Numbered from the stretch's first letter, positions 1 to 16,845 are shown. The stretch: DNA of 16,845 nt from Escherichia coli (GCF_003334315.1 NZ_QOWR01000073.1), one strand, 5' to 3'. A program made the numbers and translations. Notes: generated by a model from the letters alone, not told the origin.

Positions 1-357
1 GTCGGGGCTAAATCGCGCCAGCGCTGGCTGTTTTACGCGTATGACAGGCTCCGGAAGACGGTTGTTGCGCACGTATTCGGTGAACGCACTATGGCGACGC
101 TGGGGCGTCTTATGAGCCTGCTGTCACCCTTTGACGTGGTGATATGGATGACGGATGGCTGGCCGCTGTATGAATCCCGCCTGAAGGGAAAGCTGCACGT
201 AATCAGCAAGCGATATACGCAGCGAATTGAGCGGCATAACCTGAATCTGAGGCAGCACCTGGCACGGCTGGGACGGAAGTCGCTGTCGTTCTCAAAATCG
301 GTGGAGCTGCATGACAAAGTCATCGGGCATTATCTGAACATAAAACACTATCAATAA
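1..357 (+). CDS. insB: IS1 transposase InsB, C-terminal part (5'-truncated by window edge)
   Basis: Open frame from base 1 to TAA at 355-357; the ORF-track 88 aa segment (91..357) is the in-frame tail of InsB. Confidence 0.85.
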
Positions 358-372
358 GTTGGAGTCATTACC
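1..372 (+). mobile_element. Partial IS1 insertion sequence (3' portion, including the right terminal inverted repeat; 5' part lies outside the window)
   Basis: Frame-1 translation from base 1 reads the InsB C-terminal region (...[14 protein letters not shown]...[55 protein letters not shown]...HYQ*). The sequence ends with the characteristic IS1 terminus ...aaacactatcaataagttggagtcattacc at 343-372. Recognised from memory of IS1, not by search. Confidence 0.85.
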
Positions 373-386
373 CATCGCGTCTTATT

Positions 387-470
387 GCCGGATGCGGCGT
401 GAACACCTTATCCAGCACACATCTGGCAGCGGCTATAGGTCTGATAAGACGCGTTAGCGTCGCATCAGAC
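387..470. repeat. REP/BIME element: two REP units in opposite orientation
   Basis: gccggatgcggcgtgaacaccttatccagc (387-~416) and inverted unit taggtctgataagacgcgttagcgtcgcatcagac (435-470) are typical enterobacterial REP palindromes; located between the IS1 end and the yggR stop. Confidence 0.8.
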
Positions 471-520
471 ATTTATTGCCTTTGTAGGCCCAATAAGCTT
501 GCGCATCGGGCATGGCAACG

Positions 521-1501
521 TCACAAACGCCCTTCCCCCACCCGGTGCTGATAACTCTGCTGAAACGTTATCATCCCCACCTGCTGCCCGGTTTGAATAA
601 CATGCGGTAACTGGTGGGTTTTCCCTTCGCGAATCAAATTCCCCACCGCGGGTGTGTTAATCAGCAATTCAAATAGCGCCACGCGTCCTTCCTGTTTATC
701 CACTTCCAGCTTTTGTGACAACACGGCCCGTAAACTCCCTGCCAGTTGATTACGTACGGGATCTTTTTCCTGCGCCGGAAATGAATCCACCAGTCGCTCA
801 ACTGACTGCGCGGCACCACGCGTATGTAATGTTGCCAGCACCAAATGCCCGGTTTCTGCCGCCGTCAGTGCCAGACGGATTGTCTCGCTGTCACGCAGCT
901 CTCCGAGCAAAATCACATCAGGATCTTCCCGCAATGCGGCCCGCAATCCCGATGCGAACGTCATACAGTGCAAACCAATTTCCCGCTGCTGGATCAAACA
1001 TCGCTGGCTGGCATAGAGATATTCAACAGGATCTTCCAGCGTCAGAATATGCGCATCGGCATGTTGATTGAGATAGCCAACCATCGCCGCCAGCGTGGTA
1101 GATTTGCCGCTCCCCGTCGCCCCCGTCACCAGAATCAGGCCATTCTCGCTCTTGAGTAATTCCGGCAATACCGTTGGTGCGCCAAGCTGTTCGAGCTGCG
1201 GGCAGTGCGAAGGTAACAGCCGTAACGCCAGCGAAATGCCATGCCGTTGCGCGAATGCGCTGCCACGCAATCGCTGGTTTTCCGCCAGCGACACGGCAAA
1301 ATCCAGCTGGCCATTTTCCAGCAATATTGCCCGCTGATCGTCATCCAGCCACTCCCGCAGTAGCTCTTCGACGTCCGGCGCATCAAACGGCGCAGCTTCC
1401 ATTAGCCCGCGAATGCGCCATCGTGCGGGCCAGGCGCTGCACAGGTGTAGATCCGAGACGTTATGCTTTACACTAAGGGCCACAATTTCTTCCATATTCA
1501 T
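521..1501 (-). CDS. yggR: PilT-like type IV pilus retraction ATPase family protein YggR (326 aa)
   Basis: ORF 521..1576 (-); start trimmed to MNMEEIVALSVKHNVSDLH... (ATG at 1501) because a GAGGA Shine-Dalgarno lies 7 nt upstream and the longer version would overlap yggS. Walker A motif GATGSGKST present. Confidence 0.9.
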   Translation of the reverse strand: MNMEEIVALSVKHNVSDLHLCSAWPARWRIRGLMEAAPFDAPDVEELLREWLDDDQRAILLENGQLDFAVSLAENQRLRGSAFAQRHGISLALRLLPSHCPQLEQLGAPTVLPELLKSENGLILVTGATGSGKSTTLAAMVGYLNQHADAHILTLEDPVEYLYASQRCLIQQREIGLHCMTFASGLRAALREDPDVILLGELRDSETIRLALTAAETGHLVLATLHTRGAAQSVERLVDSFPAQEKDPVRNQLAGSLRAVLSQKLEVDKQEGRVALFELLINTPAVGNLIREGKTHQLPHVIQTGQQVGMITFQQSYQHRVGEGRL

Positions 1502-1518
1502 ACTAAGATCCTCGGAAA

Positions 1519-2223
1519 ATGAACGATATTGCGCATAACCTGGCACAGGTCCGGGACAAAATCTCAGCGGCTGCAACGCGTTGCGGCCGTTCTCCAGAAG
1601 AAATTACGCTGCTTGCAGTCAGTAAAACAAAACCTGCGAGCGCCATCGCAGAAGCCATTGATGCCGGGCAGCGTCAATTTGGTGAAAACTACGTTCAGGA
1701 AGGGGTAGATAAAATTCGCCACTTTCAGGAACTGGGCGTAACAGGATTAGAATGGCATTTTATTGGCCCGTTGCAGTCTAATAAAAGCCGCCTGGTGGCA
1801 GAGCATTTCGACTGGTGTCATACCATCGACCGTTTGCGCATCGCTACCCGTCTCAACGACCAGCGCCCGGCAGAACTTCCCCCTCTTAACGTTCTGATTC
1901 AAATTAACATTAGTGATGAAAACAGTAAGTCCGGGATTCAACTGGCTGAACTGGACGAGCTGGCAGCTGCGGTCGCTGAACTACCGCGTTTACGTCTGCG
2001 CGGGTTGATGGCAATCCCTGCGCCTGAGTCAGAATATGTAAGGCAGTTTGAAGTTGCACGCCAAATGGCTGTAGCATTTGCCGGACTGAAAACGCGCTAC
2101 CCGCATATCGACACGCTCTCTCTGGGAATGTCGGACGATATGGAAGCCGCCATTGCGGCAGGTAGCACGATGGTTCGTATCGGCACTGCAATTTTTGGTG
2201 CGCGTGATTACTCTAAAAAATAA
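1519..2223 (+). CDS. yggS: PLP homeostasis protein (YggS/PLPBP family, alanine racemase-fold PLP-binding)
   Basis: 234 aa ORF MNDIAHNLAQVRDKISAAA...; conserved lysine-containing N-terminal motif LLAVSKTKP; start only 17 bp from the divergent yggR start. Confidence 0.9.
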   Translation: MNDIAHNLAQVRDKISAAATRCGRSPEEITLLAVSKTKPASAIAEAIDAGQRQFGENYVQEGVDKIRHFQELGVTGLEWHFIGPLQSNKSRLVAEHFDWCHTIDRLRIATRLNDQRPAELPPLNVLIQINISDENSKSGIQLAELDELAAAVAELPRLRLRGLMAIPAPESEYVRQFEVARQMAVAFAGLKTRYPHIDTLSLGMSDDMEAAIAAGSTMVRIGTAIFGARDYSKK

Positions 2224-2240
2224 GGAATTAAAGGAACGCC

Positions 2241-2807
2241 ATGAATACGTTGACTTTCCTGCTTTCAACGGTCATTGAGCTGTATACCATGGTGCTGTTA
2301 TTACGCATCTGGATGCAGTGGGCTCATTGTGATTTTTACAACCCCTTCTCACAGTTTGTAGTGAAGGTAACGCAGCCAATTATCGGGCCACTGCGCCGCG
2401 TTATTCCGGCAATGGGGCCAATTGACAGCGCCTCGCTGCTGGTTGCCTATATTCTCAGTTTTATCAAAGCCATCGTGCTGTTTAAAGTGGTGACCTTCCT
2501 GCCAATCATCTGGATTGCCGGTTTACTGATTCTGCTGAAAACCATCGGCCTGCTGATTTTCTGGGTCCTGCTGGTGATGGCGATTATGAGCTGGGTAAGC
2601 CAAGGGCGTAGCCCGATTGAATACGTGCTGATTCAGCTGGCCGATCCGCTGCTGCGCCCGATTCGCCGCCTGCTACCGGCAATGGGTGGGATTGATTTCT
2701 CGCCGATGATCCTCGTTCTGCTGCTGTATGTCATCAATATGGGTGTCGCAGAAGTATTACAGGCAACCGGAAATATGCTGCTGCCAGGGCTGTGGATGGC
2801 GTTATGA
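2241..2807 (+). CDS. yggT: YggT family integral membrane protein
   Basis: 188 aa hydrophobic ORF with a duplicated YGGT-type repeat; 17 bp after the yggS stop with GGAA SD-like sequence. Confidence 0.88.
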
Positions 2808-3094
2808 ATGCCGTAACAGTTAATGATGACGGTCTGGTTTTACGGCTCTATATTCAGCCGAAAGCCAGCCGTGATTCTATTGTCGGTTTACATGGCGACG
2901 AAGTTAAAGTCGCCATTACCGCGCCGCCGGTTGACGGCCAGGCCAACAGCCATCTGGTGAAGTTTCTCGGTAAGCAATTCCGGGTAGCCAAAAGCCAGGT
3001 GGTAATTGAAAAAGGCGAACTTGGCCGCCACAAACAAATTAAAATCATTAATCCGCAACAAATCCCGCCAGAAATCGCGGCGTTAATTAATTAG
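2804..3094 (+). CDS. yggU: DUF167 family protein YggU (96 aa)
   Basis: ORF 2792..3094; start assigned to ATG 2804 ([24 protein letters not shown]...), which overlaps the yggT stop as ATGA. Confidence 0.85.
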
Positions 3095-3101
3095 GTATCC
3101 T

Positions 3102-3695
3102 ATGCAAAAAGTTGTCCTCGCAACCGGCAATGCCGGTAAAGTGCGTGAGCTGGCGTCGCTGCTTAGCGACTTCGGTCTTGATATCGTGGCCCAAACAGAC
3201 CTCGGCGTAGATTCCGCTGAAGAAACCGGCCTGACCTTTATCGAAAACGCGATTCTGAAAGCGCGCCATGCGGCAAAAGTGACCGGTTTACCGGCAATTG
3301 CCGACGACTCTGGTCTGGCGGTAGATGCGCTGGGTGGCGCGCCGGGTATTTACTCCGCGCGTTATTCCGGTGAAGACGCGACCGATCAAAAGAATCTGCA
3401 AAAACTGTTGGAAACACTGAAAGACGTACCGGACGACCAACGTCAGGCGCGTTTCCACTGCGTGCTGGTATATCTGCGTCACGCGGAAGATCCCACTCCG
3501 CTGGTGTGCCACGGTAGCTGGCCGGGCGTGATTACTCGTGAACCAGCGGGCACTGGTGGCTTTGGTTATGATCCAATCTTCTTCGTACCTTCCGAAGGGA
3601 AAACCGCTGCCGAACTGACCCGCGAAGAAAAGAGCGCCATTTCCCACCGTGGTCAGGCATTGAAACTGCTGTTGGACGCTTTACGTAATGGTTAA
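3102..3695 (+). CDS. rdgB: dITP/XTP pyrophosphatase (non-canonical purine NTPase, Ham1/RdgB family)
   Basis: 197 aa [19 protein letters not shown]...; family motifs TGNxGK and FGYDPIF present. Confidence 0.92.
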
Positions 3696-4824
3696 ATTAC
3701 CGCCGCTGAGTCTCTACATTCACATCCCGTGGTGCGTGCAGAAATGCCCGTACTGCGATTTCAACTCTCACGCGTTGAAAGGAGAAGTGCCGCACGACGA
3801 TTACGTTCAGCATCTGCTTTGCGATCTGGACAATGATGTGGCTTACGCTCAGGGCCGTGAAGTAAAGACAATCTTTATTGGCGGTGGTACGCCGAGCCTG
3901 CTTTCCGGCCCGGCGATGCAAACGCTGCTGGACGGCGTGCGTGCGCGTTTGCCGCTGGCAGCGGATGCAGAAATTACTATGGAAGCGAACCCTGGTACGG
4001 TAGAAGCCGATCGCTTTGTCGATTATCAGCGTGCTGGTGTGAACCGCATCTCTATTGGTGTGCAGAGTTTTAGCGAAGAAAAGCTGAAACGACTTGGGCG
4101 CATTCATGGCCCGCAAGAAGCGAAACGAGCGGCAAAGCTGGCGAGCGGTTTAGGGTTACGTAGCTTTAACCTTGATTTGATGCATGGACTACCGGATCAA
4201 TCACTGGAAGAGGCGCTTGGCGATCTACGCCAGGCCATTGAACTGAATCCGCCGCATCTTTCCTGGTATCAACTGACCATCGAACCCAATACGCTGTTTG
4301 GTTCGCGACCACCGGTGCTGCCGGACGACGACGCGCTGTGGGATATATTCGAACAGGGGCATCAGTTATTAACCGCAGCGGGTTATCAGCAATATGAAAC
4401 TTCCGCTTACGCCAAACCCAGTTATCAGTGCCAGCACAATCTCAACTACTGGCGCTTTGGCGACTACATCGGTATTGGCTGCGGCGCGCACGGCAAAGTG
4501 ACCTTCCCGGATGGGCGCATTCTGCGTACCACTAAAACGCGTCATCCGCGTGGTTTTATGCAAGGAAGGTATCTGGAAAGCCAGCGTGATGTCGAAGCCG
4601 CAGATAAGCCGTTTGAGTTCTTTATGAACCGCTTTCGCTTGCTGGAGGCCGCGCCACGCGCAGAGTTTAGTGCGTATACCGGGCTTTGCGAAGATGTGAT
4701 TCGCCCACAGTTAGACGAGGCGATTGCCCAGGGTTATCTCACCGAATGTGCGGATTACTGGCAGATAACGGAACATGGGAAGCTGTTTTTAAATTCGCTG
4801 CTGGAGCTTTTTCTGGCTGAGTAA
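3688..4824 (+). CDS. hemW: Radical SAM family heme chaperone HemW (coproporphyrinogen III oxidase-like)
   Basis: 378 aa ORF with a CxxxCxYC radical-SAM cluster motif (CVQKCPYC); start overlaps the rdgB 3' end by 8 nt. Confidence 0.9.
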
Positions 4825-4833
4825 ACTTGTATT

Positions 4834-4952
4834 GCCGGATGCGGCGTGAACGCCTTATCCAGCCGACATGTGGCAGCGGTTGTAGGTCTGATAAGACGCG
4901 CAAGCGTCGCATCAGACGTTGATTGCCGGATGCGGGGTCAACGCCGCATCCT
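4834..4952. repeat. REP/BIME cluster (three REP-like palindromic units)
   Basis: gccggatgcggcgtgaacgccttatccagc (4834-~4863), inverted unit taggtctgataagacgcgcaagcgtcgcatcagac (4881-~4916), third unit gccggatgcggggtcaacgccgcatcc (4925-~4951). Lies between the convergent hemW and yggM 3' ends. Confidence 0.8.
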
Positions 4953-4978
4953 GCTACAAATCGTGCACTATATCAAAC

Positions 4979-5986
4979 TTACTTAATCACCCCATTGCGC
5001 CGCAGTTGTTCGGTATCTTTTTTCCAGCGTTCATTAGCTTGGTTGATATCGTCAATTTTCATCAAAATCGCGACTTTTTTACTGTTTATTTCTGAAACTT
5101 TCATCGTTAACGGATATTGCCCTTTTTCGAGCGTTACCCAGTCATCCTGCAATTTACGGCTGAGTTTTTGTGATTGCAGAAAAGTCTGTCGCCGTTGTTC
5201 GTTGATATCGAAATCTCGTTTCTGCTGAATCGGCACTTCATAACACTCTTCACTCTGTTTATGACATGCCGCAATCGCCGGTTGATAAACCTCTTTGTCA
5301 TATTTAACCGCGAACGCCTCGCTATCGTTCTGTTTATTAAACTCATCACGCTGTTGGTGAATTTTTTTAAAGGCTTCTTCACGGGTCATTTGCTTACCGT
5401 TTGCATCTTTTCCCCAATATGCATCCGCTGCTTTCTGCGCCGCCACCATTTGCTTATCAAGCGCTTTCACTTCCTTTTCCAGCGCAGGAATCGAGTTCTT
5501 CTGGGTATTCAACGCAGATTCAAGCTGACTAAAGCGATAATTGAAATCTTCGCTATTCACGATCAGATATTTATTATTCGTTTTGATATCGTCGACCACC
5601 CGCCCACGATCGCTGGCTGCCGCCTGAAAAGAGTAAAAGTTCACCGACCAGCCAGACGCGGGCGTTCCTTTACTGGTTAACATCGCCGAGAATTTTACCG
5701 GTTTATCTTTCGTCCAGGTCTGTTCGAGCAGTTCGTAATCTGCCAACTGACCGACCCAGGTATAGAGATCGTCACTGGAAGAGACATCGCCTTCCGCTGA
5801 CCAGGTGGCCTGATTACCCTTAGCATCAAGATTTTTTAAGGTGATAGCATCAAGCTTGAGAATGCCGTGATACTGCTTTTTGAATTGATCTTTTAAGATA
5901 TTTTCAGTTGGCGGTTCGCCATCTGCCCAGACATTACCAGTCATCAACATAAGCAGCGCCGTGCCAACAATCCATTGCTTTTTCAC
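4979..5986 (-). CDS. yggM: Secreted protein of unknown function YggM (DUF1202-like), N-terminal signal peptide
   Basis: 335 aa ORF MKKQWIVGTALLMLMTGNVWADGEPP...; signal peptide with an AxA-type cleavage site (VWA/DG); K/E/Q-rich, probably coiled-coil C-terminal half. Confidence 0.85.
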   Translation of the reverse strand: MKKQWIVGTALLMLMTGNVWADGEPPTENILKDQFKKQYHGILKLDAITLKNLDAKGNQATWSAEGDVSSSDDLYTWVGQLADYELLEQTWTKDKPVKFSAMLTSKGTPASGWSVNFYSFQAAASDRGRVVDDIKTNNKYLIVNSEDFNYRFSQLESALNTQKNSIPALEKEVKALDKQMVAAQKAADAYWGKDANGKQMTREEAFKKIHQQRDEFNKQNDSEAFAVKYDKEVYQPAIAACHKQSEECYEVPIQQKRDFDINEQRRQTFLQSQKLSRKLQDDWVTLEKGQYPLTMKVSEINSKKVAILMKIDDINQANERWKKDTEQLRRNGVIK

Positions 5987-8116: not shown

Positions 8117-8195
8117 GCCGGATGCGGCGTAAACACCTTATCCCGCCTACTCGATCGTGCATCTTTCCAGGCCTGATAAGCGTAGCGCATCAGGC
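8117..8195. repeat. REP/BIME element (two REP units in opposite orientation)
   Basis: gccggatgcggcgtaaacaccttatcccgcctac (8117-8150) and gcctgataagcgtagcgcatcaggc (8171-8195); between the yggL 3' end and the yggN 5' end. Confidence 0.8.
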
Positions 8196-9273: not shown

Positions 9274-9433
9274 AAAGGTTTAGTCGCTTGTGAAAGTGTT
9301 CTGAAAACGGGCATTATCCAAAGTTAGTTGCCGGATGCAAGCATGATAAGGCCGTGGCTGCGGAAAGTTCCGGTTTACACCCTGCCGTCGCTGTGCTGCA
9401 ATCTTGCCCCCAACAACAGTGAATTCGGTGACC

Positions 9434-16786: not shown

Positions 16787-16845
16787 GCCCGGATAGCTCA
16801 GTCGGTAGAGCAGGGGATTGAAAATCCCCGTGTCCTTGGTTCGAT
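16787..16845 (+). tRNA. pheV: tRNA-Phe (anticodon GAA), 5' 59 nt; 3' end truncated by the window
   Basis: GCCCGGATAGCTCAGTCGGTAGAGCAGGGGATTGAAAATCCCCGTGTCCTTGGTTCGAT: acceptor/D-arm/anticodon loop (cuGAAaa) and start of the T-arm (GGTTCGAT). Assigned as pheV rather than pheU from the yqgA-adjacent context. Confidence 0.9.

Follow-up and report, generated by a model that had tools for sequence, protein, structure and literature searches.

Sister BIME-2 units at the two ends of the yggR-hemW block of Escherichia coli

A stretch of 16,845 nucleotides from Escherichia coli (NZ_QOWR01000073.1, assembly GCF_003334315.1; the whole stretch is called the window here, with positions counted from its first letter) carries two similar bacterial interspersed mosaic elements (BIMEs), built of repetitive extragenic palindromic (REP) sequences, one at each end of the gene block from yggR to hemW. 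Does such a pair reflect only the abundance of BIMEs, does it provide a substrate for the loss or amplification of the genes in between, or does it record the copying of one unit to a second place? We favor the last of these. In our reading, to which we assign a probability of about 0.75, the two are sister BIME units, the one after hemW was copied from the one after yggR, both would act as hairpins at the 3′ ends of transcripts, and they do not constitute a recombination cassette for the block.

A specific pair of BIME-2 units

The direct repeat spans 98 nt (383-480 and 4830-4927, 4447 nt from start to start), and both a repeat search of the window and direct comparison give a gap-free alignment in the same orientation, with 88/98 positions identical (90%) and mismatches at repeat positions 23, 35, 36, 41, 51, 53, 72, 73, 89 and 92. 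A chance origin is excluded by the score of the pairwise blastn comparison (132 bits, E = 7.8e-37) and by the length of all other direct repeats of the window, which do not exceed 35 nt. One further hit of the repeat search, at 9316-9338, was rejected as not being a REP. Each copy is base for base the same in K-12 MG1655. Between the copies, the open reading frames and the K-12 annotation place yggR on the minus strand, followed by yggS, yggT, yggU, rdgB and hemW on the plus strand, and both elements lie between convergent stop codons: those of IS1 or ruvX and yggR on one side, and those of hemW and yggM on the other. An initial annotation of this DNA had described two BIMEs in direct orientation around this block, at the ends of convergent genes, and had pointed to the abundance of such elements. 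All of this was borne out, including the order of the six genes; it is the left neighbor of copy 1 that needed correction, which in the window is the end of an IS1 element (1-372) and not ruvX. The features are as follows.

383-480, plus strand: repeat copy 1, a 91-nt BIME-2-type unit (383-473) followed by TATTGCC of the next unit
387-420, plus strand: y-type REP of copy 1, GCCGGATGCGGCGTGAACACCTTATCCAGCACAC, aligning to the Y hairpin of Rfam naRNA4
421-434, plus strand: tail-to-tail linker of copy 1, ATCTGGCAGCGGCT, 14 nt with the core GGCAGCGG
435-470, minus strand: inverted z2-type REP of copy 1 with a T...A stem-base pair (GGTCTGAT...ATCAGAC), aligning to the naRNA4 Z2 hairpin
484-511, minus strand: inverted z1-like REP beside the yggR stop, recognized by sequence and as a hairpin in the fold of the yggR 3′ untranslated region (UTR)
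4830-4927, plus strand: repeat copy 2, a 91-nt BIME-2 unit (4830-4920) followed by GATTGCC of the next unit
4834-4867, plus strand: y-type REP of copy 2, aligning to the naRNA4 Y hairpin
4868-4881, plus strand: tail-to-tail linker of copy 2, ATGTGGCAGCGGTT, 14 nt
4882-4917, minus strand: inverted z2-type REP of copy 2, sharing the T...A stem-base pair of copy 1 and aligning to the naRNA4 Z2 hairpin
4925-4957, plus strand: third REP, y-like and a nearly perfect palindrome, the lone REP left in zero-unit genomes
4835-4955, no strand assigned: REP217 (K-12 3098414-3098534), mapped by coordinates from the supplement of bioRxiv 10.64898/2026.03.23.713779
1-372, plus strand: right end of an IS1 element, given for context and outside the BIME, 99-100% identical to IS1A/IS1B on many plasmids

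A unit of 91 nt thus consists of a y REP, a 14-nt tail-to-tail linker, an inverted z2 REP and a 7-nt head-to-head linker. The element after hemW is composed of y and z2 only (y-z2-y) and is a BIME-2; the one after yggR carries in addition the z1-like REP at 484-511, which makes it a y-z2-z1 chimera, of the class called atypical in the scheme of PMC3333891. At the position of this z1-like REP, TUM13867 and E. whittamii have canonical z1 forms. A y REP is an imperfect palindrome of about 35 nt flanked by GTAG/CTAC; the CTAC is degraded to CACAC in copy 1 and reads CGAC in copy 2. In both elements the first REP stem lies 9 nt from a stop codon, that of hemW (4822-4824) or that of yggR (521-523, minus strand). 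Liang, Rudd and Deutscher are said to have found in 2015 that REPs no more than 15 nt from stop codons lower translation via ribosome stalling. A third BIME of the window, between yggN and yggL (8117-8195), consists of a y REP (8117-8150) and an inverted z1 REP (8169-8195) separated by a linker of 18 nt, and its y REP has an unusual ACACC loop variant that is also found in copy 1.

These are elements of a known kind, ordinary E. coli REP/BIME elements at gene ends, and the second is an annotated REP: the supplement of bioRxiv 10.64898/2026.03.23.713779 lists the hemW/yggM element as REP217 (K-12 3098414-3098534) and labels it "Convergent." For genome annotation they are routine, two REP/BIME elements at gene ends with one already catalogued. 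The Rfam family naRNA4 (RF02564) aligns to the Y and Z2 hairpins of both copies, to Z2 with high posterior probability. Its match in the region of copy 2 (4885-4955, minus strand) scores 60.9 bits, barely over the gathering score of 59.5, and the region of copy 1 scores 42.1 bits, under it. Since the model derives from the Y-l-Z2 repeats of REP325 (PMC4550694), a match signifies a BIME-2 unit and nothing more; the role of naRNA4 as an HU-binding RNA in nucleoid condensation is itself disputed (bioRxiv 10.64898/2026.03.23.713779).

To what extent 90% identity is special can be judged against other units of the family. The background consists of 138 Y-linker-Z2 units, nearly all of them from Escherichia and cut to the 98-nt frame of the repeat; they come from a scan of species-representative genomes that required exact conserved REP cores and covered further Escherichia species along with two divergent E. 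coli. Units at different loci of the same genome have a median identity of 0.75-0.79 and a 90th percentile of 0.80-0.82, and tandem units within one BIME have a median of 0.92-0.95, in agreement with the report that BIME-2 linkers vary between loci and are conserved within a locus (PMC3333891). The initial annotation had named as its own refutation an identity no higher than that of random REP pairs. This comparison went the other way: the value of 0.898 is attained by at most 1% of different-locus pairs in four genomes (0, 0.3, 0 and 0.7%), and by 9.8% in a fifth, whose arrays are fragmented over small contigs. Two observations from the genome scans may be added here. In Escherichia sp. MOD1-EC7003 the BIME-2 arrays are very large, with 12 and 5 pattern matches on a single contig, and units lying on different small contigs reach 100% identity, which inflates the inter-locus identity for that genome. 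A 720-nt contig of Alkalicoccobacillus porphyridii (Bacillales), with a coverage of about 1, contains an Escherichia-type Y-Z2 unit and is most likely contamination.

We also searched complete E. coli genomes (5,426) with each copy. With copy 1, no genome has more than two places scoring 128 bits or higher (the median of two being itself and copy 2), and at about 95 bits the median rises only to three. For copy 2 the median is three places, and the extra one is the BIME between lamB and malM, more than 1 Mb away in K-12, the unit of which is identical to copy 2 at 87/98 positions and to copy 1 at 79/98. The BIME between nrdD and nrdG was considered as a third close relative of copy 2 and rejected, its K-12 unit reaching 81/98. 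The match to lamB-malM weighs against our reading: because copy 2 is consensus-like and resembles that unit almost as much as copy 1, an identity of about 90% alone is no proof of a special link. Together with the family-wide conservation of the REP cores, it is what speaks for the alternative that the copies are unrelated BIME-2 members, alike through the family consensus and with no event of copying between them.

What sets the pair apart is a set of shared characters that depart from that consensus. In all yggR-side and hemW-side units the base of the z2 stem reads GGTCTGAT...ATCAGAC, while the family consensus, lamB-malM and nrdD-nrdG read GGCCTGAT...ATCAGGC; the T...A variant is thus a compensatory pair. 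Among the background units this variant is found in 2/138, the copy-1 ortholog of E. whittamii being one of the two, and the linker core GGCAGCGG in none (0/138). In O157-type genomes, moreover, the identity of the yggR-side unit to the hemW-side units is 96.9%, against 88-90% to lamB-malM. Because of the rare z2 variant, the linker core and the O157-type alleles, the two copies constitute a specific sister pair, beyond mere common membership of the family. These same characters, and the background of 0.75-0.79 between loci, make the consensus explanation improbable. The similarity of the repeats had been called not unusual. This holds for the abundance of BIMEs, but not for the pair, the identity of which is above that of inter-locus pairs and which shares rare characters. 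It would be wrong to expect the same degree of similarity of any two BIMEs: units are locus-specific, so that one type at two loci marks copying.

Unit number and the origin of the hemW-side unit

Both elements vary between strains. We measured spacers with flank-only queries, reading the length from the span of each match. The spacer between hemW and yggM falls into classes of about 63-68, 154, 241-242 and 329 nt, which correspond to 0, 1, 2 and 3 units and are represented by 12, 26, 4 and 1 genomes in a sample of 43. At the other end, the spacer between ruvX and yggR has lengths of 6, 114, 162, 173-175, 178, 183 and 190 nt, and its alleles include one with no REP (R32_14_1F), one with a y REP, an L-like linker and z1 (MLI106K4), and one with a partial y and z1 (TUM13867). 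Strain GF124.3 shows no difference from K-12 at copy 1 and its flanks and lacks exactly 91 nt, the hemW-side unit, with breakpoints inside the motif ATTGCCGGATGCGG that starts successive units; in strain 117 there are three units after hemW, of which the second and third are identical to each other. Unit number thus shifts by whole steps of 87-91 nt inside each element, and BIMEs are known as sources of intergenic polymorphism (PMC3333891). The alleles with zero to three units, some on near-identical backgrounds (GF124.3 versus Combat13F7), offer ready material for studying the effects of REPs on the expression of hemW and yggM, and likewise how REP units come and go.

About 1,490 of 5,423 genomes do not have the hemW and yggM flanks within 650 nt of each other in the flank search. 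All five such genomes that we read (L003, L095, L102, L103 and L104) have a TRAP-transporter island after hemW. They have no BIME between hemW and yggM; an AT-rich spacer of 311-315 nt follows hemW, and then the TRAP-transporter cluster. The presence/absence polymorphism of this island begins exactly at the hemW stop (window about 4825). One of the five, E. coli O121 GTVSS-020 (L103), has a yggR annotated as frameshifted, a ruvX that is 30 nt longer and a ruvX-yggR spacer variant of 158 nt. In R32_14_1F (L097, 5351-5356) the gap of 6 nt between ruvX and yggR may represent either an empty site of ancestral origin or the result of a clean deletion; the yggM of this strain has an internal stop and is annotated as a pseudogene.

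The direction of copying is indicated by a comparison with E. whittamii, where the orthologous block has one unit after yggR (85-89% identical to E. coli units) and a lone REP after hemW. A lone REP only is also found after hemW in E. coli MLI106K4 and R32_14_1F. Since the yggR-side and hemW-side units of E. coli resemble each other more (96.9%) than either resembles the yggR-side unit of E. whittamii (87-89%), the hemW-side sequence appears to derive from the yggR-side lineage after the split of the species. We suggest that the hemW-side unit was probably copied within E. coli from the older yggR-side unit. The yggR-side haplotypes form a series (O157/117/D3; O121/UPEC132; strain 165/2013C/CLSC36/ET479; K-12/Combat13F7/GF124.3/window), and the 90% identity seen in the window would then be that of a once-closer pair, of which copy 1 has diverged stepwise since.

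The similarity of the two loci could also be due to ongoing gene conversion across the 4.4 kb, a form of concerted evolution. In O157-type genomes the yggR-side unit is indeed more similar to the hemW-side units (96.9%) than to its own ortholog in K-12 (89.8%), on a background of intervening genes that are 97.6% identical between O157-type and K-12. Ongoing conversion is nonetheless unnecessary to account for this pattern, because the stepwise series of yggR-side haplotypes is explained by simple divergence from a consensus-like ancestor; in addition, the copies of K-12 and the window have drifted to 90% without homogenization, and the entire ruvX-yggR spacer is deeply polymorphic, non-REP flanks included. 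We thus regard sustained conversion as unlikely, and prefer a copying event followed by divergence.

In its most specific form, our proposal is that the yggR-side unit was recently duplicated over a short distance (4.4 kb) to give the hemW-side unit, put beside a resident lone REP, and that E. coli still segregates alleles of the donor and of the target, with the site filled or empty (0, 1, 2 or 3 units); on the sequences at hand we would give this form even odds. The unit would have been placed next to the y-like REP already present after hemW by insertion or by conversion. The copying could have proceeded through single-strand cut-and-paste by TnpA-REP (RAYT, the REP-associated tyrosine transposase), or alternatively through template switching or short-patch conversion primed by the shared motif ATTGCCGGATGCGG. 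If true, this local duplication is a natural, sequence-resolved case of REP/BIME spread, one that could separate RAYT transposition from template switching. Several points count against this history. The zero-unit state after hemW can also be produced by precise deletion, as in GF124.3, and loss may have been repeated. The direction of copying is read from one informative outgroup species, E. whittamii, and the mechanism of copying is purely what we infer. The kinship background, finally, is that of other Escherichia and two divergent E. coli, selected by exact REP cores.

The enclosed block

Direct repeats of this length had been regarded as plausible substrates for low-frequency deletion or duplication of the intervening genes. 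To detect such events, we constructed a synthetic deletion junction (ruvX flank, hybrid BIME and yggM flank) and a synthetic tandem-duplication junction (hemW 3′ end, hybrid BIME and yggR 3′ end). In none of the 5,426 complete E. coli genomes (0/5,426) does either query match at one place over 80% or more of its length; the best matches cover 60%, that is, one flank plus the BIME. Every one of the 5,426 has the 4.2-kb interior of the block, and in 5,413 a single place accounts for at least 80% of it. The longest perfect run between the copies is 22 nt in the window and K-12, and 44 nt in O157-type genomes. For RecA to recombine DNA efficiently in E. coli, about 23-27 bp must be perfectly identical (the minimum efficient processing segment), and a divergence of 10% triggers mismatch-repair anti-recombination; because of their 22-nt run and 10% divergence, the repeats of the window are poor recombination substrates.

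The copies therefore do not act as a detectable recombination cassette for the 4.4-kb block, as judged from assembled genomes, and the role proposed for them was not upheld. That the repeats serve to delete or tandemly duplicate the block we consider very improbable, although rare events in cultures may escape a survey of assembled genomes. Their direct orientation, length of 98 nt and 90% identity would allow it, as would the 44-nt perfect run of O157-type genomes, and none of the six genes is known to be essential in K-12, but no junction was seen and the block is kept throughout, with a run in the window at or under the RecA minimum and a divergence opposed by mismatch repair. Loss of the block would probably meet with counterselection, and this could be a further explanation for the absence of deletions. 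In sum, repeats of 98 nt and 90% identity gave no fixed deletion or duplication of the genes they enclose in any of 5,426 complete genomes.

Other features adjoin or fall within the block and its surroundings. The IS1 junction lies at 372/373, 10 nt left of copy 1, at the place taken in K-12 by the 3′ flank of ruvX (yqgF), and the match to K-12 runs from 373. If the IS1 insertion was simple, the 9 nt at 373-381 (CATCGCGTC) are its target duplication. No IS1 was found at the ruvX-yggR site among the complete E. coli genomes of the collection, and an exact-match scan of metagenome contigs did not find the exact IS1-BIME junction; Combat13F7 is 100% identical across the block without IS1. The other IS1 end is outside the window, and a simple insertion and a rearrangement both fit. 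In NZ_CP151161.1 the region matching yggR-hemW contains an annotated transposase of IS621 (IS110 family); IS621 targets REP sequences. At the end of the window, after yqgA, lies the 5′ part of a tRNA gene (16787-16845; Rfam tRNA, 40.5 bits), cut by the window end. From its position after yqgA we take it to be the counterpart of pheV of K-12, a known island integration site.

Transcript ends and known systems

The repeats had also been proposed to mark the 3′ ends of transcripts, and part of this is plausible. The 3′ UTRs fold more stably than shuffled sequences (z-scores of -6.05 for hemW, -5.16 for yggM and -4.60 for yggR). At copy 2, a Rho-binding (rut) peak has been mapped to REP217 (K-12 3098511-3098610, plus strand; window 4932-5031), and a bicyclomycin-sensitive transcript (3098480-3099197) starts on REP217, from window 4901 onward (bioRxiv 10.64898/2026.03.23.713779). 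The tables of the same study list neither a rut peak nor a bicyclomycin-sensitive transcript for the yggR-side element. An intrinsic terminator is absent from both spacers, in that none of the 10 terminator-like sites (hairpin plus U-run) in 1-5400 falls in 373-520 or 4825-4978. REP325 is described as a partly Rho-dependent terminator and mRNA stabilizer, and the presence of a REP between convergent genes is associated with higher expression (bioRxiv 10.64898/2026.03.23.713779). We suggest, by analogy, that the REP hairpins would block 3′ exonucleases at the RNA level, and that those of REP217 may coincide with Rho-dependent termination of hemW read-through. At the DNA level each element is a probable gyrase site, BIME-2 units being preferred: gyrase cleavage sites are enriched in BIME-2, mostly in y REPs (PMC6379681). 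On the other side of the balance, the available part of the Topo-seq supplements of PMC6379681 makes no mention of yggR, hemW or yggM, and the RNA and gyrase roles at both loci are what we infer from the REP family.

Among known systems, the closest in structure are BIME-2 elements such as REP325 (located between yjdM and yjdN, and the origin of naRNA1-6), which share the y and z2 hairpins, the inverted layout and the short linkers (PMC3333891, PMC4550694), as well as tandem units of about 90 nt, an extragenic 3′ location and a unit number that varies between strains. REP325 has six units, compared with 1 to 1.5 here, and relative to the Rfam naRNA4 model the head-to-head linker is 6 nt shorter. 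The yggR-side element differs from a BIME-2 in ending in a z1-like REP, and the z2 REPs of both elements differ in their rare compensatory stem variant. The BIME between lamB and malM, the classic REP site of the mal operon, is like the present units in length and frame, and its Y-Z2 unit is identical at 87-88/98 positions to copy 2 and to O157-type copy 1. It is set apart by the consensus C...G base of the z2 stem, the linker ATTTGACAGCCGTT, a GTAAAC y loop, the lower identity to copy 1 of the window (79/98) and its location within an operon between tandem genes.

The terminator and stabilizer model of Rho and REP325 in 3′ UTRs fits in several respects: a REP array follows right after the stop codon, the hairpins are strong, there is no U-tract, and on the hemW side the element overlaps a Rho-binding peak and a bicyclomycin-sensitive transcript. 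REP325, in contrast to the elements described here, is inside an operon and not between convergent genes. With respect to REPINs and RAYT (TnpA-REP, a domesticated Y1 transposase), the window has no RAYT gene, and the border of the putatively copied unit (TTGCC/GGATG, in the y REP) is not among the types of cleavage site found in vitro (PMC3333891); type I cleavage sites are reported to be absent from inverted y REPs (PMC3333891). Common to both are an inverted REP doublet as the copyable unit, a variable number of units, and a unit at a second locus beside a pre-existing REP, which fits the published models of excision/integration and amplification (PMC3333891).

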